From a virus (taxonomy: Duplodnaviria > Heunggongvirae > Uroviricota > Caudoviricetes): a stretch of 15,620 nt of DNA. Below, piece by piece: positions 166 to 9,982 of this stretch. Location of the stretch: the IMG/VR virus record IMGVR_UViG_2663762841_000005. The stretch is one strand, 5' to 3'. The notes beneath the pieces were generated by a model. It was not told where the DNA came from and made no database searches. It saw nothing but the letters and a program-made list of their open reading frames with translations. The first letter of the stretch is position 1; every line of letters starts with the position of its first letter. Both the position numbers and the translations under genes were made by a program.

Positions 166-408
166 TTAGTAACGCCAGCGGTCATAACGCTGATATTTCG
201 GCACTTTTGGTGCTTTAATCGCCTTAATAACCCACACCACCGCAATCGCCAGTAGTAACCACGGCAGCAACTTAATCATCAATGCCAGCATACCGCCGAG
301 GAACATAATGGCCGTCGCCACAACCAGCGCGGCGATAATGCCCAGCAACGAAACGCCGGTGACCATCAGCATGACAAAAAAGCCAAACACAAAAAGTAGT
401 TCCAGCAT
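166..408 (-). CDS. pspG: Phage shock protein G (PspG), 80 aa small inner-membrane protein
   Basis: The minus-strand ORF translates to MLELLFVFGFFVMLMVTGVSLLGIIAALVV...KYQRYDRWRY, a hydrophobic 80-aa protein matching PspG as I recall it. The six-frame track ORF (166..618) over-extends the N-terminus; I chose the ATG at 408..406, which lies just downstream of the sigma-54 promoter. The position next to dusA matches the known E. coli yjbN-yjbO (dusA-pspG) synteny. Confidence 0.85.
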   Translation of the reverse strand: MLELLFVFGFFVMLMVTGVSLLGIIAALVVATAIMFLGGMLALMIKLLPWLLLAIAVVWVIKAIKAPKVPKYQRYDRWRY

Positions 409-541: not shown

Positions 542-1579
542 TTAACGCTTATCCGCCACCAGTTTGAGCGCGTGTTCCAGCACATTAATGTCTGCACCCG
601 CTTTATGGGCATTTTCACTTAAATAACGCCGCCACTGCCGCGCGCCAGGAATACCCTGGAACAAGCCCAACATATGCCGGGTAATATGGCCGAGATACGT
701 CCCCTGGCTGAGTTCACGCTCAATGTACGGATACATGGCGCGCACTACCGCCACTGGATCGGCATCGGTATCCGAGGAACCAAAGATCTCCCGGTCTACC
801 GCCGCCAGAATACCCGGATTCTGATACGCCTCGCGCCCGACCATCACGCCATCCATATGTTGCAGGTGTGCTTTGGCCTCTTCCAGCGACTTGATACCAC
901 CGTTAATCGACATTGTCAGATGCGGAAAGTCACGCTTCAGTTGATACACACGCGGATAATCGAGCGGCGGGATTTCACGGTTTTCTTTCGGGCTTAACCC
1001 CGAAAGCCAGGCTTTACGTGCGTGGATGATAAACATCTCACACTCGCCTTTGCCGGAAACGGTGTTGATGAAATCGCAGAGAAATTCATAGCTGTCCTGG
1101 TCATCGATGCCAATACGCGTTTTCACCGTCACTGGAATCGACACCACATCGCGCATCGCTTTCACGCAGTCGGCAACCAGCTGCGCATTACCCATCAGAC
1201 ACGCACCAAACATGCCGTTCTGCACCCGGTCAGACGGGCAGCCGACATTCAGGTTGATCTCATCATATCCACGCGCTTCTGCCAGCTTCGCACACTGTGC
1301 CAGCGCCGCCGGATCGCTACCGCCGAGTTGCAACGCTACCGGATGTTCTTCTTCACTGTACGCCAGGTAATCACCTTTACCGTGAATAATCGCCCCTGTG
1401 GTCACCATTTCGGTATACAGCAACGTATTGCGGGAAAGCAGACGCAAGAAATAGCGGCAATGTCTGTCCGTCCAGTCGAGCATAGGAGCAATGCTAAACC
1501 GAGAACTCCAGTAAGCGCCAGTTTTTTCAGGCATCACGCTGGTTTGATTAGTTTTCTGTGTTTCAGGATTATCGTGCAT
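542..1579 (-). CDS. dusA: tRNA-dihydrouridine(20/20a) synthase DusA
   Basis: 345-aa ORF with recognisable DusA/YjbN sequence ([22 protein letters not shown]...LNVGCPS...IHARKAWL...). An alternative internal start (MPEKTG, residue 16) would give the 330-aa form. The 5' end of this gene is the known target of dusA-specific integrases. Confidence 0.93.
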
Positions 1580-1612
1580 TTTTGAACATTTCAGGCTATT
1601 TTTCTCGCGTTA

Positions 1613-1647
1613 GGTTCCCGCACAGGTTCCCACGCTTTATGGGAACC
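1613..1647. repeat. GGTTCCC direct repeats (1613-1619, 1625-1631) plus inverted copy GGGAACC (1641-1647) between dusA and int
   Basis: Read directly from the sequence: taGGTTCCCgcacaGGTTCCCacgctttatGGGAACCcg. Candidate integrase or regulator binding sites, or part of the att region; also overlaps the likely int promoter/5'UTR. Confidence 0.4.
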
Positions 1648-1667
1648 CGAAATAACGAGGTCGTGTA

Positions 1668-2765
1668 ATGGCGTACTATAACATAGAGAAACGACTAAAA
1701 TCCGATGGCACACCACGCTATCGCTGTAATGTGATTATCAAAGAAAAAGGTGTTATCACTTACAGGGAAAGCAAAACATTCCCTAAACATGCTCATGCCA
1801 AAACATGGGGCGCACAGAAAGTGATGGAATTAGATCTATATGGCATTCCATCATCAAATGCTGTTGACGGACTTACAGTCCGTGACTTACTACACAAATA
1901 TTTAAATGACCCAAATGCCGGAGGTAAAGCAGGCCGTACTAAAAGATATGTGCTGGAACTGCTTATGGATAGTGACATCTCCGCGATCAAACTATCTGAA
2001 CTGACAGAAAATGACGTAATTGAACATTGCAGGCTAAGAAACAACGCTGGTGCAGGCCCAGCAACAGTCAGCCACGATGTTAGTTATCTTGGCAGTGTTC
2101 TGGATGCGGCAAAACCTGTATACGGAATCAATTACACATCAAACCCGGCGAAAAGCGCTCGTCCATATCTACTTAAACTCGGTTTGATTGGTAAATCAAA
2201 CCGTCGTAATCGTAGACCAGCATCTGATGAACTGAACATGCTCATTGAAGGCCTTCAACAACGATCTACTCATAAATGCTCAAAAATTCCGTTCGTTGAT
2301 ATCCTCAAATTTTCTGTGTGGTCCTGTATGCGAATCGGAGAAGTATGCCGGTTACGATGGGAAGATCTCGACCAGGAACAAAAATCTATACTAGTAAGAG
2401 ACAGGAAAGATCCACGTAAAAAGGAAGGCAACCATATGAAAGTTGCCTTGCTTGGGGAAGCCTGGGATATCGTCCAGCGACAACCCAAAAAATCAGAATT
2501 CATTTTTCCATATAACAGCACTTCTGTTACCGCAGGATTTCAGAGGGTAAGAAGCAAATTAGGTATTAAAGATCTGAGATACCATGATTTGCGTAGAGAA
2601 GGGGCAAGTCGCTTATTTGAGGCTGGTTTTAGTATTGAGGAAGTCGCTCAGGTTACAGGGCATCGTTCATTAAACGTGCTATGGCAGGTATATACCGAAC
2701 TGTATCCGAAATCTTTACATAATCGTTTTGAAGAACTCCAAAGGAGCAGAAATAAGACCTCTTGA
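1668..2765 (+). CDS. Tyrosine-type site-specific integrase (dusA-associated integrase family candidate)
   Basis: 365-aa ORF with a C-terminal tyrosine recombinase catalytic region (RIGEV...R, HDLRREG, GHRSLNVLWQVYTELY with the candidate catalytic Tyr). It is the first island gene, directly adjacent to and transcribed away from the dusA 5' end. Confidence 0.9.
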   Translation: MAYYNIEKRLKSDGTPRYRCNVIIKEKGVITYRESKTFPKHAHAKTWGAQKVMELDLYGIPSSNAVDGLTVRDLLHKYLNDPNAGGKAGRTKRYVLELLMDSDISAIKLSELTENDVIEHCRLRNNAGAGPATVSHDVSYLGSVLDAAKPVYGINYTSNPAKSARPYLLKLGLIGKSNRRNRRPASDELNMLIEGLQQRSTHKCSKIPFVDILKFSVWSCMRIGEVCRLRWEDLDQEQKSILVRDRKDPRKKEGNHMKVALLGEAWDIVQRQPKKSEFIFPYNSTSVTAGFQRVRSKLGIKDLRYHDLRREGASRLFEAGFSIEEVAQVTGHRSLNVLWQVYTELYPKSLHNRFEELQRSRNKTS

Positions 2766-2825: not shown

Positions 2826-3074
2826 ATGCGTATTGAAATCTGCATAGCCAAAGAAAAAATGACTAAAATGCCAACCGGTGCTGTGGATGCGTTAAAGGAA
2901 GAATTAACCCGACGCATCAGTAAACGTTATGACGATGTAGAAGTGATCGTAAAAGCCACCAGCAACGATGGCCTTTCTGTTACGCGCACCGCTGATAAAG
3001 ATTCAGCTAAAACTTTTGTTCAGGAGACTCTGAAAGATACCTGGGAGTCTGCTGACGAGTGGTTTGTTCATTAA
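2826..3074 (+). CDS. DinI-family DNA damage-inducible protein (prophage DinI homologue)
   Basis: 82-aa [14 protein letters not shown]...[11 protein letters not shown], with DinI-like length, N-terminus (MRIE..IAK) and C-terminal TWESAD-WF motif; preceded by a LexA box. Confidence 0.8.
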
Positions 3075-3296: not shown

Positions 3297-3848
3297 ATGC
3301 ATGACAATATTTGGTTTACATATAAAGCACGTATCCAAGCGCACCATCGACTAGAATGGCTTGAAAAACACTCTCAATTTATCCTCGTTTGGTATGCTAT
3401 ATTGAGTGCGGTACTTTCAATTGTAACGTTGCGATTTCCAAAGGTTCTAGGAGATAATACAGATGTCGTTGCGGCGATACTTTCAGTGGCTCTACTGGGT
3501 ATTTCTCTGATCGTATCTAACCTAGATTTTCGTGGTCGAGCAATAGCCATGAGAAGGAATTATATTGCACTACAGCGACTCTATTTTGACATTACCACCA
3601 GTCAACAGTTATCTCTTGAACAGAAAGAAAAATATTTTAATTTGCTCAATGAGGTTGAGAATCACCGTGACATAGATGATAAAATTTCAAGGGTAACTCA
3701 AGTTGGACTTAAGACGAGGATCCCCACACAAAAAGAAAAAATAATTGTTATTTTATGGATATTACTTCGAATATTTATTACTGCCGCACTTTATATACTC
3801 CCATTAATATATCTTTGGATTGACTATGACTGCAAGCAGAATTTTTAA
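3297..3848 (+). CDS. Small multi-TM membrane protein (2 N-terminal TM helices plus a C-terminal hydrophobic segment); candidate effector of the RT module, possibly SLATT-like
   Basis: 183-aa ORF, AT-rich, SD AAGGA 7 nt before the ATG. Hydrophobic stretches FILVWYAILSAVLSIVTL, VVAAILSVALLGISLIVSNL and IIVILWILLRIFITAALYILPLIYLWI. Its 3' end overlaps the RT start by 29 nt, suggesting translational coupling. The SLATT assignment is a guess from architecture. Confidence 0.65.
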   Translation: MHDNIWFTYKARIQAHHRLEWLEKHSQFILVWYAILSAVLSIVTLRFPKVLGDNTDVVAAILSVALLGISLIVSNLDFRGRAIAMRRNYIALQRLYFDITTSQQLSLEQKEKYFNLLNEVENHRDIDDKISRVTQVGLKTRIPTQKEKIIVILWILLRIFITAALYILPLIYLWIDYDCKQNF

Positions 3849-5196
3849 AAAGTCATTCTCGAAAAAAAATCTTCTAAAAGTATACTCTGAAAAAATCAAA
3901 GAATCAGGAGCGATTGGCATAGATCGGATTCGCCCATCAAAACTTGATTTGACAATAAAAAATGAGATCACTTTCATTTTTGAAAAGGTTAATTCTGGCA
4001 ATTACAAATTTACAGCATATAAAGAAAAATTAATATCTAAAGGCGCTAACTCTACACCCAGACAGATTTCCATACCAACTGCTAGGGACAGAATTACTCT
4101 TAGAGCTCTCTGTGAATGCCTTACGGAAATATATCCTAAGTCCAGATTAAAACTACCACATACAGTAATTGACTCATTGAAAGAAGCATTAAACAACAGT
4201 CTATATGCTGAATATGCAAAAATAGATCTTAAAAGTTTCTATCCTTCAATTGAACATAAATTGATAATTAATGCAATAAAAAATAAAATTAGAAAAAAAG
4301 AAATTAGACAGTTAATAACATCATCATTAATCGTGCCTACTGTAAGTGGAACCACAGGAAGCAAAGGTATCCCTAATAATACCAGAGGAGTACCTCAGGG
4401 ATTAGCGATATCAAACATTTTAGCTGAAATATCACTATCTAATTTCGATGATGAAATCAATAAAATGCATGACATATGGTACATGCGATACGTTGATGAC
4501 ATTCTTATTTTAACACCAAAATATCAAGCAACAAAAATAGCTTCTCATATCATTGATAAGCTTCAATCATTAAATTTAAACCCACATCCATTAAATGAAG
4601 AGAACTCAAAATCCAAAGTAGGCAGTTTGGATGAAAGTTTTAACTTTTTGGGATACCACATAGAAAATCGAGAATTATTGATAAAACATGAGAGCATTCT
4701 TAGATTTGAGTCATCCTTAGCAAAAATTTTTACTGCATATAGGCACGCTCTACTACAAGCTAAAAGTAAGCGTGATAAAGAACGAGCTGTTGCATATTGT
4801 CAGTGGAAACTAAATCTCAGAATTACGGGATGTGTGTTTGAAGGTAAACGATTGGGATGGGTATCGTACTTCTCACAAATAACCTCAACAGCTCAACTTC
4901 GCTCTGTTAATCATACTATCAATAATCTTATCCGCCGATTCGGCCTTTCATCAGAAATAAAACCAAAATCTTTGATTAAAACTTTCTATGAACTCCGCAG
5001 AGGTAGAGCGGAGACTTTTAAATACATACCTAACTTTGACAATCTACATATATCTCAGAAACGAGAACTTGTTTCTATGTGGATAGGTAAAGAGAAGGAA
5101 AAAAAACTTAGCAATAGTGAAATAGAGAGGAAGTTTAAATTTAAAATTGCGAAATCAGTAAAAGAGCTTGAAGAGGATATTTCAGGAATATCATAG
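3820..5196 (+). CDS. Reverse transcriptase (prokaryotic retron/Abi/UG-type, defence-associated candidate)
   Basis: 458-aa ORF with canonical RT motifs: motif A IDLKSFYPSI (Asp about residue 136), motif B' GVPQGLAISNILAEISL (about 190-206), motif C YVDD (residues 224-227, nt 4489-4500), motif E-like FLGY, plus a C-terminal extension of roughly 170 aa. A possible retron-like NN..A and ITG (region-7 VTG-like) are present, but the spacing differs from Ec86, so the family call is tentative. Confidence 0.9.
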   Translation: MTMTASRIFKKSFSKKNLLKVYSEKIKESGAIGIDRIRPSKLDLTIKNEITFIFEKVNSGNYKFTAYKEKLISKGANSTPRQISIPTARDRITLRALCECLTEIYPKSRLKLPHTVIDSLKEALNNSLYAEYAKIDLKSFYPSIEHKLIINAIKNKIRKKEIRQLITSSLIVPTVSGTTGSKGIPNNTRGVPQGLAISNILAEISLSNFDDEINKMHDIWYMRYVDDILILTPKYQATKIASHIIDKLQSLNLNPHPLNEENSKSKVGSLDESFNFLGYHIENRELLIKHESILRFESSLAKIFTAYRHALLQAKSKRDKERAVAYCQWKLNLRITGCVFEGKRLGWVSYFSQITSTAQLRSVNHTINNLIRRFGLSSEIKPKSLIKTFYELRRGRAETFKYIPNFDNLHISQKRELVSMWIGKEKEKKLSNSEIERKFKFKIAKSVKELEEDISGIS

Positions 5197-5250: not shown

Positions 5251-5667
5251 TCACAAACCAGCCGCAGTATCCTGCCATGGCAAGTTGCTGCGGCTTTTTA
5301 TGTTCAACGGATCAACAGCCAGATCAGAAGACACGCTACCCACGTTGTAAACGAACGAGTAAAGAGCGCCGCGCGTTGTTTCCGGTATATCGACTTTGAT
5401 GTACGGGTTAATTTGTCTGGCGACCGTGGCAAGGTCTTTATTCAGGAGGGCTTTGCATTCTGCTTCGGTATACGTTTTACCTAGCATGATGTCTTTTCCG
5501 GTGTGTCCGTAACATACAGTCCATACGCCAACGATATCTTTGTATGGTATGTAGCTGACACCTTCCAGGCCATCGTCACCACTTGGGCCAGTGATTAACA
5601 CTGATGCTATAGCAATTGCTCCGCCACCAATAGCAGCAGCAACTGCTTTTCGTAATGATGGAGGCAT
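5251..5667 (-). CDS. SAR endolysin (phage 21 R-type, T4-lysozyme-fold glycoside hydrolase), apparently 3'-truncated at the junction with the RT cassette
   Basis: N-terminal signal-anchor [27 protein letters not shown] followed by the lysozyme catalytic region ([26 protein letters not shown]...[15 protein letters not shown]). After about residue 110 (nt about 5340) the sequence loses lysozyme character and reads through the plus-strand terminator before stopping; full-length homologues are about 165 aa by my recollection. Its start overlaps the holin stop. Confidence 0.75.
5260..5300 (+). terminator. Rho-independent terminator of the RT operon (AGCCGCAG ... CTGCGGCT stem, then TTTTTAT)
   Basis: 8-bp perfect inverted repeat at 5260-5267 / 5288-5295 enclosing a palindromic TGCCATGGCA core, followed by a T-run at 5295-5299; about 65 nt downstream of the RT stop. 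Confidence 0.6.
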
Positions 5668-7592: not shown

Positions 7593-8759
7593 ATGGAATT
7601 GACCAAAAAAATGAGCAAAGCAAGCATACGCCACGTAATCGTTCATGAGCTCTTAAAAGAATCTAATAAAGACTTCGATCACTCCAAACCATACAATCTT
7701 CGTGATACAGAACTAGATAAAACAAATGATATAGTAAAAAAATTAGTAGACGGTGTTATTGATTTGTATGGTTCAAAAGGGAACTCAGCGCATTATGGTG
7801 TTTTTATTAAAAATAAAACAAAGCAAGGCCCTATACCAGAACTATTTCATAAATACTCTTTAGTTCAACAATCTGTTTCAAGTGATTTCATTGAATTATC
7901 GAAGGAAGTTATGAAACAAATGTATAAATCTGCTCAAGAGCAGATTTGGGCTTCTGGAGGATATGTTGTTTTTACTGATTATATTTTATCTGGTTTCCGT
8001 TATCTATTGGTTACAATGATCAAAAAAACTAATGGCGTAACTATTAGTGAAAATTTAGAGCCAGAGGAAATGATTCACTTAGAACTTGGTAATATTAACC
8101 AAGCAGCAAAAATAAATTTCAGATATTATGAAGAATACCAAAAAGCAGATGACTTAAAAAAAACAGACTTAAGTTATCTAAGCTTTATAAGCAAAACTAC
8201 GGGACAGTCAGCGGCAGCATATTTTATAGCAGCATTAGGATGTGACAAGGGGATTGCTTCAGCAGGTGCAACCCGTAAGTTACCAGATGAAATAAGGCGT
8301 TTCTTTAAGAAAGAACCTCTTTTAAAAAATCAAGCAGAGTCATTTAGAAATGATGTTATCAAATACTTAGAAAAGCAATTTGACAACGAGCACTCTGCAA
8401 GGCTTTCTGATATCGAATCGCTTGCTTCAGGCCATATGTCCTATTTAAAAGAGGAAGAAAAAACAGAACTTGTTGATAAATTAATGAAACACCTCAATAG
8501 TGAGGAAGTCAGAATCCCATCAGAGTTCGTAATCAATAAAAACTCCTTAGATAAAATCAGCAATGTGATATATAAAACCCCATCATTGAGCTTTCACTTC
8601 GACAAGGATTTACTCGGTGTCACAACTGATGCTAAAATATATTATGATGACGAAAACCAAAGCCTAACATTTAATAATTTGCCTGTTGAAGCATTAACTA
8701 AGATAAGAAGAGCGTTGAAAGAAACTGATAACCCAAGTAATGAAGAAGATAAAGAATGA
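7593..8759 (+). CDS. Nucleoid-associated protein NdpA/YejK-family homologue (divergent, AT-rich)
   Basis: 388-aa ORF with YejK-like blocks: IRHVIVHELLK near the N-terminus, GGYVVFTDYILSGFRYLLVTMIKKTNGVTISENLEPEEMIHLELGNINQAAKIN, and YLSFISKTTGQSAAAYFIAALGCDKG. The probable true start is the ATG at 7611 (MSKASIRHV...), which aligns with the YejK N-terminus; 7593 is the longest ORF. Its stop overlaps the start of the next gene (ATGA). Confidence 0.75.
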   Translation: MELTKKMSKASIRHVIVHELLKESNKDFDHSKPYNLRDTELDKTNDIVKKLVDGVIDLYGSKGNSAHYGVFIKNKTKQGPIPELFHKYSLVQQSVSSDFIELSKEVMKQMYKSAQEQIWASGGYVVFTDYILSGFRYLLVTMIKKTNGVTISENLEPEEMIHLELGNINQAAKINFRYYEEYQKADDLKKTDLSYLSFISKTTGQSAAAYFIAALGCDKGIASAGATRKLPDEIRRFFKKEPLLKNQAESFRNDVIKYLEKQFDNEHSARLSDIESLASGHMSYLKEEEKTELVDKLMKHLNSEEVRIPSEFVINKNSLDKISNVIYKTPSLSFHFDKDLLGVTTDAKIYYDDENQSLTFNNLPVEALTKIRRALKETDNPSNEEDKE

Positions 8760-9982
8760 ATGATTTTAGTATAATAGTTAATCTGTATAGATTATCAAGC
8801 TATCCTCATTTTGACGGGGCTAAGTTTTCTGCGCGTATAGCTTATAATGCAGACGTAAAATCATTGTTCAAAAGAATTTTGAACCCTACTTTTCAAGCTG
8901 GTACAGCTGACGAAATAGAGGTGGATGGTCATTTAATTTATGATTATGAAGACTTTCCTGAAAAGGGAAATTTTCTTACATACTCGTTTAAAATTTCACA
9001 AGGAAGTGCGAATCGTTTTTATAAAAATAAAAACGAGTTTGTAAAAATAAACACGCTCAAGAAAGGCATAATGCCAGAGTATTTCTATATTATAGAGGAT
9101 GATTTCTATTCATTAGAAACACCAAAACCTTCTTATATCCAAAAAATTGAGGACATTTGTGAGCTAATCAATGCTCTTTCCATGCTTGCTCATTTCCATG
9201 ATATAAAAAAAGATAGCAAAGGTACATTTTATCGTTTAGTCTTTATTTTAAACTCAGAGTCTAAATCTTCTTCTGCTGTAATTGAAACAAATATTACAGA
9301 AGAAATTTTTAATGATAAAACAGTAAATACTCAGTTAGTTAAAACATTAGTAAGTAGTGAAGCTACTACTGATGCCCATCACATTGAAAAGATTAACACT
9401 TTCAGAAACACAGTTATTGAGTATGTTAATAAAAATGGAAATTCCTTTGTCGAGTTAATTAACAAGTGGGATTTCATATGCGAACTTTATACGAACAACT
9501 TAGCTGCTTATATGTCGGCATTTTCTTTTCATAAAGCAAGGAAAGAAGTTGTTGATGCTGAACTCGATTACTCAGAAAAACTGTCAAAAATAATTTCAGA
9601 AATTTCTAACAAAGCTCTTGCAATACCTATTTCACTAGCTGGTTCAATTGCTATTTTCAAATTAACAACAAAAGCTGATTGGATTATTGCTTTAATTGGA
9701 TTGATTATCACAGCAATAATAACATCTGCAATGATTGTGTCACAAAAAAAACAACTTGCTCGTATTTCACACTCTAAAGAAATACTTTTTGGACAATTAA
9801 GATATAGAATAAAGGATGACACCAGCGATCTTAAAGAGAGCTTAGAAGAGGCTATTAAAAAATTAAATGACAATGAGGATTTTTGTCATAAGGTGCTTGA
9901 CAGTTTATTATCACTAGCATGGATGCCTACATTCATAGGCATCATCGGTATTTTATTTAAATTAATGCCAAATATTACTTGA
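8756..9982 (+). CDS. Hypothetical protein with soluble N-terminal domain and three C-terminal TM helices; candidate membrane effector partner of the NdpA-like protein
   Basis: 408-aa ORF, AT-rich, translationally coupled to the upstream gene (4-bp overlap). Predicted TM segments at about residues 287-302, 309-327 and 383-403 (nt about 9614-9964). No recognisable catalytic motifs. Its 3' end overlaps the 3' end of the convergent Q gene by 8 bp. Confidence 0.7.
   Translation: MNDFSIIVNLYRLSSYPHFDGAKFSARIAYNADVKSLFKRILNPTFQAGTADEIEVDGHLIYDYEDFPEKGNFLTYSFKISQGSANRFYKNKNEFVKINTLKKGIMPEYFYIIEDDFYSLETPKPSYIQKIEDICELINALSMLAHFHDIKKDSKGTFYRLVFILNSESKSSSAVIETNITEEIFNDKTVNTQLVKTLVSSEATTDAHHIEKINTFRNTVIEYVNKNGNSFVELINKWDFICELYTNNLAAYMSAFSFHKARKEVVDAELDYSEKLSKIISEISNKALAIPISLAGSIAIFKLTTKADWIIALIGLIITAIITSAMIVSQKKQLARISHSKEILFGQLRYRIKDDTSDLKESLEEAIKKLNDNEDFCHKVLDSLLSLAWMPTFIGIIGILFKLMPNIT

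Follow-up and report, generated by a model that had tools for sequence, protein, structure and literature searches.

How did a tyrosine integrase gene come to lie against the 5′ end of dusA at this locus, where does the host gene give way to the incoming element, and what are the short GGTTCCC repeats between the two genes for? The stretch of DNA analyzed (hereafter, the window; 15,620 bp) is Escherichia coli chromosome and matched strain MS10495, among others, at 100% identity from end to end. It carries pspG (166-408, minus strand) and dusA (542-1579, minus strand), the latter a 345-aa open reading frame with a Pfam Dus match at E 8e-105, followed on the plus strand by a dusA-associated tyrosine integrase of 365 aa (1668-2765; Pfam Phage_integrase, E 8e-21). 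The two genes are divergent, and the open reading frame coordinates agree with the initial annotation in placing their start codons 89 bp apart (1579 and 1668), with an intergenic gap of 88 bp (1580-1667). This integrase sits next to dusA in 730 of 5,426 complete E. coli genomes (~13%).

The junction was located by a four-way alignment of attL in the window, attR in the source genome (locus L004, ~39,021, where window position x corresponds to x+17000), the integrase-free K-12-type strain AR436, and DS566-1, a strain with a shorter dusA allele that abuts zur. The dusA body on the minus strand, running from the third base of codon 35 to the stop codon (542-1475), was 100% identical to AR436 over 934 nt and 97.3% identical to DS566-1, and this identity to integrase-free dusA, together with the Pfam match, marks it as host-derived. 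Directly beyond it lies the crossover core, TCGAGCAT (1476-1483), the only block identical across attL, attR, both types of empty site, and phage attP. It comprises codons Met33 and Leu34 plus the first two bases of Asp35, inside the conserved DusA motif APMLDWTD. Position 1475 carries the host base G (A in attP) and position 1484 the phage base A (T in attB), so strand exchange is placed within the 8 bp between them. The attL and attR sequences, GTCCAGTCGAGCATAGGAGCAA and ATCCTATCGAGCATTGGTGCAA, are semi-conserved repeats with 8 bp identical, and both match the published attB, TCCAGTCGAGCATGGGAGC, inside which the core falls.

Past the core, the sequence changes character. The 96 nt from 1484 to the dusA start codon at 1579 (minus strand, codons 1-32) matched the displaced K-12-type 5′ end at 78/96 nt and 22/32 aa, attL and the resident allele having different bases at 18 of the 96 positions, and similarity was gone ~10 bp beyond the start codon. 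The same segment was nearly identical to the corresponding stretch of the contiguous attP in phages mEp460 and SKA5. The proposals in the initial annotation that an element had integrated at the 5′ end of dusA and had supplied a replacement 5′ end were thus borne out by alignment with an island-free strain, which places the divergence directly past the core. Its finer placement fared less well: the core had been expected within 1500-1579 and was found 17 bp to the left of that bracket, and the estimate that the first 15-25 codons are island-derived was right as to origin but too short, the replaced segment being 32 codons long. A divergence point at 1582, through which integrase-free genomes aligned by megablast, was considered and rejected as an artefact, because the alignment extends that far owing to the ~81% similarity between two dusA 5′ ends that both appear to be element-derived.

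The right-hand partner of this junction had been predicted to lie outside the window, and it was found there with a second copy of the core: core to core, the two sites are 20,545 bp apart in the source genome, with attR at what would be position 22,021 in window numbering. Unrelated phage DNA lay to the left of the attR core, where attL has host sequence, and to its right was the K-12-type dusA 5′ end at 100% identity. This displaced resident 5′ end persists as a pseudogene (L004 39020-39124), which RefSeq annotates as a dus pseudogene without a C-terminus. When attP was rebuilt by joining the left side of attR to the right side of attL, the product was nearly identical to the contiguous attP upstream of int in mEp460 and SKA5, in which the P′ arm, now the dusA-int intergenic region (1580-1667), is contiguous with the core. 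Leftward, mEp460, SKA5, and the present prophage were unrelated to one another, and their similarity began exactly at the P-arm repeat GGTTCCCAATAGGCTCCC, a GGTTCCC-N4-GGCTCCC pair at L004 38960-38977, 43 bp before the core. This shared starting point delimits a conserved recombination module of about 300 bp, consisting of two P-arm repeats, a core with the dyad TCCTAT/ATAGGA on either side of CGAGC, a 96-nt dusA-like coding fragment, ~30 bp of further sequence, and P′ repeats arranged as AGGTTCCC-N4-AGGTTCCC-N9-GGGAACCC that end 20 bp before the int start codon.

These data bear on the view that no integration shaped dusA at all and that the integrase merely neighbors an ordinary allelic variant whose 5′ differences are normal polymorphism. 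The megablast alignments of integrase-free genomes through 1582, at 97-99% overall, are what such a view would predict. Set against them are the 100% identity up to 1475 with an abrupt fall to 81% from 1484, the second core copy and resident-type 5′ end 20.5 kb away, the same dusA-like 5′ segment in the attP of phage genomes, and the experimental demonstration that a near-identical Int integrates at this site (PMC6328086). We therefore attach next to no weight to polymorphism as the explanation. Integration by a phage is the reading that we adopt, and we consider it very likely, taken as a whole, that a defective lambdoid prophage of the mEp460/phi1720a-02 kind has its attL junction at 1476-2765 and that the repeats in it are arm-type sites.

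In mechanistic terms, the prophage (20.5 kb core to core) entered E. coli dusA at codons 33-35 by site-specific recombination of the tyrosine-recombinase type. The sequence comparisons show that exchange occurred inside the 8-bp TCGAGCAT, with everything leftward remaining host dusA, that the next 96 nt rightward are a phage-borne dusA-like 5′ end that restores the 345-aa reading frame, and that the displaced resident 5′ end was kept as the attR pseudogene. The intergenic region 1580-1667 must then hold the promoters of both int and the chimeric dusA. A simple scan for consensus sigma-70 promoters and terminators found none in 1400-2000, so neither promoter could be placed. A related island has been reported to provide dusA with both a promoter and a reading frame (PMC8409611).

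The prophage is decayed in the source strain: its lysozyme gene is truncated, and genes for head and tail are absent. Near attR, outside the window, is a PrtN-family gene (L004 37368-37637; Pfam PyocinActivator, E 3e-23), the homologue of which is annotated as an excisionase in mEp460. The cargo includes defence-type genes, namely a SLATT protein and a UG17-class reverse transcriptase, and also gave a weak match to a two-gene nucleoid-associated anti-phage pair. Two LexA-box-like sequences were seen ahead of the dinI-like gene that lies just after int.

The integrase itself is of a known kind. Its catalytic residues, R222, H306, R309, H332, and Y342, were invariant or nearly so in 63 homologues, and the protein was 98-99.5% identical to the Int of mEp460, Lys8385Vzw, phiSTEC1575-Stx2k, SKA5, and 1720a-02 (99.2% for the last, phi1720a-02). 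Homologues with 52-99% identity were collected at 80 loci from contigs representing one genome per species, 75 of which had enough upstream flank for inspection; in 54 of these 75, from many genera, dusA was directly upstream and divergent, with gaps of 78-175 bp. The remaining 21 loci adjoin other genes, and a minority of dusA-family integrases at other sites has also been reported (Farrugia; PMC4482086). The assignment to the dusA-associated type in the initial annotation is thereby upheld, and the element is in practice a dusA-associated integrase (DAI) element with a known integrase. Searches with NCBIfam returned only sub-threshold Xer and integron matches and no specific model for this protein. 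By tblastn, Int matched about 2,300 mostly conjugative enterobacterial plasmids at ~26% identity, one of them with the hit annotated as rci, and the mEp460 annotation names INT_Rci (cd00796). The Rci of IncI-type plasmids likewise matched at ~26% identity, and only from residue ~75 (~70-75) onward. With integrase and target site both already published, the element is of a known kind, and its presence here is an ordinary finding.

The repeats are less readily accounted for by published descriptions. All three copies noticed initially, two GGTTCCC and one inverted GGGAACC between 1613 and 1647, for which the initial annotation had proposed no function, were confirmed (1613-1619 and 1625-1631 on the plus strand, 1641-1647 on the minus strand), and they are the only copies on either strand of the window. 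Each extends by one base, giving AGGTTCCC, 4 bp, AGGTTCCC, 9 bp, and the inverted GGGAACCC, so that the three candidate arm-type sites occupy 1612-1619 (P′1, plus strand), 1624-1631 (P′2, plus strand), and 1641-1648 (P′3, minus strand; GGGAACCC as read on the plus strand). The second direct repeat and the inverted copy together form an 8-bp dyad, GGTTCCCA-N7-TGGGAACC.

Could three such copies be a chance cluster without function? Their number alone would allow it, given that 1.3 are expected in the window and 24 of 200 shuffles reached at least three. Their spacing is another matter: all three fall inside 35 bp, which by our own estimate has a probability of roughly 1e-5 for three random sites. 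Moreover, two further copies lie on the other attP arm, and the same layout recurred upstream of homologous integrases at ~60 loci in dozens of species even though the word itself varied. Because the layout recurs so widely and the motif pair is repeated on the other arm, we do not regard the repeats as accidental, and a chance origin seems to us very unlikely.

Across the Gammaproteobacteria, the homologues keep a layout in which a direct-repeat pair phased at 11-12 bp is usually succeeded by an inverted copy. The positions and 12-bp phasing of P′1 and P′2 were conserved, and their sequence was lineage-specific. Most Enterobacterales homologues had an inverted third copy, the counterpart of P′3, such as GGGGTGCTG behind two AGCACCCC, or TGGTGTAC behind two GTACACCA; some distant homologues, from Vibrio and Colwellia, lacked a clear one. 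The words encountered included GGTTCCC/GGCTCCC, GGATCCC, GCACCCC, GTACACC, GGACACC, GGTATCC, GTGCCCC, and CTGCCCC. In all five attP sites for which both arms were readable, the P-arm pair used the same word as the P′ arm, these being the site shared by the present element and mEp460, and those of Yersinia phage YeP1, EKP1, Morganella phage IME1369_02, and a Vibrio tectivirus-like element. Integrase homologues that reside at sites other than dusA retained the repeats beside int.

From these observations, we infer that the two P-arm and three P′-arm repeats of the GGTTCCC type are candidate arm-type recombinase sites rather than the att core, which they do not resemble in sequence. The integrase has a segment that could read them. 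An AlphaFold2 model of Int (pLDDT 86) has three domains like lambda Int, namely an N-terminal domain at residues 1-58 made of a three-stranded sheet (strands 2-10, 16-26, and 29-38) and a helix (41-58), a helical core-binding domain, and a catalytic domain, with a low-confidence linker at 62-64 after the first of these. In a whole-chain Foldseek search, full-length lambda Int (1z1g) was among the best matches, with a high rmsd. Pfam identified no domain in residues 1-60, and a weak Int_N match (E 0.028) covered residues 72-165, which correspond to the core-binding region.

The first 60 residues of Int also track the repeat word, with VITYRES accompanying GGTTCCC, KYIYREN accompanying GCACCCC, KHLHRET accompanying GTACACC, and KRIFNES accompanying GGACACC; the automatic repeat finder had mis-called several AT-rich repeats, and the motif classes used for the comparison of pairs were re-derived with a GC and suffix filter. 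At matched identity over the rest of the protein, the N-domains of pairs with a common motif were clearly more alike than those of pairs with different motifs (identities of 0.65 versus 0.50, 0.74 versus 0.57, 0.83 versus 0.72, and 0.89 versus 0.82), a signal that is inflated by the shared ancestry of the sequences compared and conservative in that classes differing only in register were counted as different. For the covariation between attP arms, phage GenBank records took the place of IMG/VR, where a scan had given only near-identical E. coli copies. By this evidence, the N-terminal three-stranded-sheet domain (residues 1-60) may read the arm sites, as in lambda Int, in which case the enzyme would be heterobivalent and would build an intasome on the ~300-bp attP that ends 20 bp before the int start codon.

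The placement of the repeats also lends itself to another function, as operators or accessory sites serving a different protein from the integrase, either RdfN, the PrtN-family excisionase, or a regulator of the divergent int and dusA promoters. They lie in the 88-bp divergent promoter region, with the last copy 20 bp from int, and a dyad such as that formed by the second direct repeat and the inverted copy is typical of dimeric regulators. RdfN, moreover, is encoded by the element itself and differs strongly from one element to another (PMC8409611), which would allow it to covary with the repeats as well. It is, however, the Int N-domain sequence that follows the repeat class, and homologues away from dusA keep the repeats next to int. 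The same word stands on both attP arms, flanking the core at -43 and +129 bp, the arrangement seen with integrase arm sites; the sites of lambda Xis lie on one arm only. We accordingly judge a role confined to some other protein improbable. The two functions need not exclude each other, as Int binding could also autoregulate int. Since the P′ sites lie in the int/dusA promoter region, arm-type sites bound by Int may additionally regulate the transcription of int or dusA.

Arm-type sites went unmentioned in the published descriptions of dusA elements (PMC4482086, PMC6328086, PMC8409611), and a full-text search for dusA with "arm-type" matched only broader papers on genomic islands and ICEs.

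The alignments also raise the matter of where the K-12-type dusA 5′ end came from. In 1,123 genomes, a shorter dusA (331 aa) lies directly beside zur, and its 5′ end past the core is unrelated. The K-12-type 5′ end was 81% identical at the nucleotide level to the phage-borne fragment, and the DUF2713 gene that comes after it is missing from the short allele. Together, these features suggest that the K-12 DusA N-terminus is a fossil: its 32 residues are probably the relic of an older insertion at the same core. No short-allele dusA 5′ end was detected near zur in K-12-type strains, in which only the zur-proximal 135 bp align. With no attR-like short copy of this kind, the relic idea rests on the resemblance of the K-12 5′ end to those carried by phages.

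Taken together, the attP of these elements may follow a fixed grammar, in the order of two P-arm sites, the core, the dusA 5′ fragment, and then two direct and one inverted P′ sites just before int. With confidence slightly better than even, and judging from sequence comparisons, we propose that DAI integrases are heterobivalent enzymes acting on such a grammar, that the arm word co-evolves with the N-terminal sheet segment while the core stays fixed on dusA, and that the K-12 DusA N-terminus and DUF2713 are the fossil of an earlier DAI element. If this is true, each lineage would have a private arm code, which could prevent cross-excision between dusA elements that lie in tandem or arrive in succession. 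The candidate code would offer an experimental handle on how intasomes are built in a widespread integrase family, and it would help to mark out attP in newly found dusA elements. The relic idea affects which N-terminus of DusA should be called "native" when the E. coli enzyme is studied structurally or biochemically. The junction itself is mainly of value for annotation: it fixes the left boundary of the prophage in ~13% of complete E. coli genomes, and the annotated DusA N-terminus at carrier loci is phage-encoded. The grammar and the relic are small, modest additions to published dusA-element biology.

Comparison with characterized systems places these additions in context. Rci, the IncI shufflon recombinase, resembles the present Int in its core-binding and catalytic domains (~26% identical). 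Its match begins only at about residue 70-75, so that it is without the N-terminal domain proposed here to read arm sites, and it inverts shufflon segments rather than integrating an element. The likeness to lambda is one of architecture, in that the predicted three-domain protein has a small N-terminal sheet-plus-helix domain, and attP has five short repeats, split into two (P) and three (P′), that flank a core with a short overlap region. Unlike in lambda, the N-domain has no detectable sequence similarity to that of lambda Int, one of the P′ sites has the opposite orientation, integration hits the interior of a protein-coding gene that a phage-borne gene fragment then repairs, and the recombination directionality factor is of the PrtN type instead of lambda Xis. 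The PrtN-family gene of the present element corresponds to the published RdfN, which Durand et al. (PMC8409611) identified as the excision directionality factor of a related dusA island.

The closest relatives are the Stx2dact phage phi1720a-02 (KF030445) and mEp460 (NC_019716), with which the present element shares an Int that is 98-99% identical, an attP nearly identical from the P-arm repeats to the int start, and a dinI-like gene after int. Phage phi1720a-02 integrates ~100 bp into dusA, has a 21-bp motif with a 7-base core common to attL, attR, attP, and attB (TCCAGTCGAGCATGGGAGC), and encodes an in-frame dusA′ fragment; in its delta-int mutant, attP formation was lost, such that Int is required for excision (Balasubramanian et al., PMC6328086). 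Unlike these phages, the present prophage is decayed and has no stx, and it has cargo of its own, comprising the UG17 reverse transcriptase with the SLATT protein and the nucleoid-associated protein pair. The published host of phi1720a-02 is Citrobacter rodentium, whereas the host here is E. coli.

More broadly, the integrase of this element is of the dusA-associated kind, a family that was established by Farrugia et al. (2015; PMC4482086) and in which Escherichia is well represented. In common with DAI elements, the present one has a tyrosine recombinase with the RHRH/Y residues, an integrase gene that adjoins the dusA 5′ end in divergent orientation, a new dusA 5′ end supplied by the element, semi-conserved (~21 bp) direct repeats at both ends, and a PrtN-family gene. 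The DAI family is a phylogenetically distinct clade with Rci as its nearest characterized relative, and the ~26% matches to Rci may point to the same relationship for the present Int. We found no essential difference from them, the particularity of this locus being that the dusA 5′ end that served as the target was itself probably derived from an earlier element.

We compared the 5′ ends of dusA in the integrase-free K-12-type strain AR436 (L001, 4484-5958), in strain DS566-1, where a short dusA adjoins zur (L002, 5484-5700), and in the window (1484-1582). The K-12-type 5′ end comprised 32 codons and had 81% nucleotide identity to the phage-borne fragment. Among 5,426 E. coli genomes, 1,123 lacked this 5′ end and its neighboring DUF2713 gene; dusA in these encoded a protein of 331 aa with an unrelated N-terminus and lay immediately adjacent to zur. 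A displaced short dusA 5′ end was sought near zur, and none was left there. An earlier element that targeted dusA has probably left its relic in E. coli, as the N-terminus of the reference DusA protein.

Of the 75 integrase homologues, 21, with 52-66% identity, had no adjoining dusA in the region inspected, upstream of position 3001 (L026, L030-L032, L035-L038, L040-L043, L050-L052, L054, L056, L060, L062, L077, and L081). The paired repeats that precede int, candidate arm-type sites, were kept in nearly all of these loci, mostly as AGCACCCC, and many retained a 'cgtgcat' relic resembling the start of dusA. A DEAD-box helicase gene was the int neighbor in two Xenorhabdus loci. These homologues may be retargeted members of the family.

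The prophage is decaying and exists in several variants that differ by deletions. The 20.5-kb prophage of strain MS10495 had no structural genes, and its lysozyme gene, annotated as truncated (window 5251-5667, minus strand; 22335-22667 in the source locus, L004), adjoined the reverse transcriptase (RT) module. Other strains had an extra 6-7 kb at the same place, with terminase and tail fiber fragments, or an ISKox3 inserted after int.

The RT module (3297-5196, plus strand) comprised overlapping genes for a SLATT_5 protein (3297-3848; RT-associated SLATT model, E = 1.5e-56) and an RT (3820-5196; PADLOC RT_UG17, E = 1e-158), a pair that is recognizable from these models as a defense-associated RT (DRT) cargo module. 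It was flanked by a dinI-like gene on one side and the truncated lysis cassette on the other. A two-gene pair at 7593-9982 (plus strand) encoded an NA37/YejK-like nucleoid-associated protein (388 aa) and a 408-aa protein in which no Pfam domain was found. This pair had no PADLOC match, and its scores against the NCBIfam anti-phage proteins DS1_1 and DS1_2, 98 and 100 bits, were below the respective cut-offs of 330 and 315. Immediately inside attR, genes for a Panacea (SocA-like antitoxin) domain protein and a 182-aa hypothetical protein (L004 37671-38715, minus strand) likely form a toxin-antitoxin or defense pair at the other cargo hotspot.

'Elizabethkingia phage EKP1' (L168, OM284015.1) is attributed to a Bacteroidota host. 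Its host assignment looks doubtful, because it carries an enterobacterial-type dusA-associated integrase (67% identity), PrtN and dinI genes, and an attP that combines the dusA core CCATCGAGCATGG with a gammaproteobacterial-like dusA 5′ fragment. In the plasmid collection, a 99.5% identical integrase copy was located at 347293-348384 of NZ_CP135245.1, a 373-kb record classed as an E. coli plasmid, which could be a phage-plasmid, a large dusA-carrying plasmid, or a misassigned chromosomal contig.

Finally, two LexA-box-like copies of CTGT-N8-ACAG (2768-2783 and 2796-2811) were located between the int stop codon and a DinI-family, dinI-like gene (2826-3074, plus strand). These sites, together with an int-dinI order common to the phages mEp460, SKA5, and EKP1, suggest SOS control of expression immediately beside the recombination module; the mEp460 annotation places a promoter between int and dinI.
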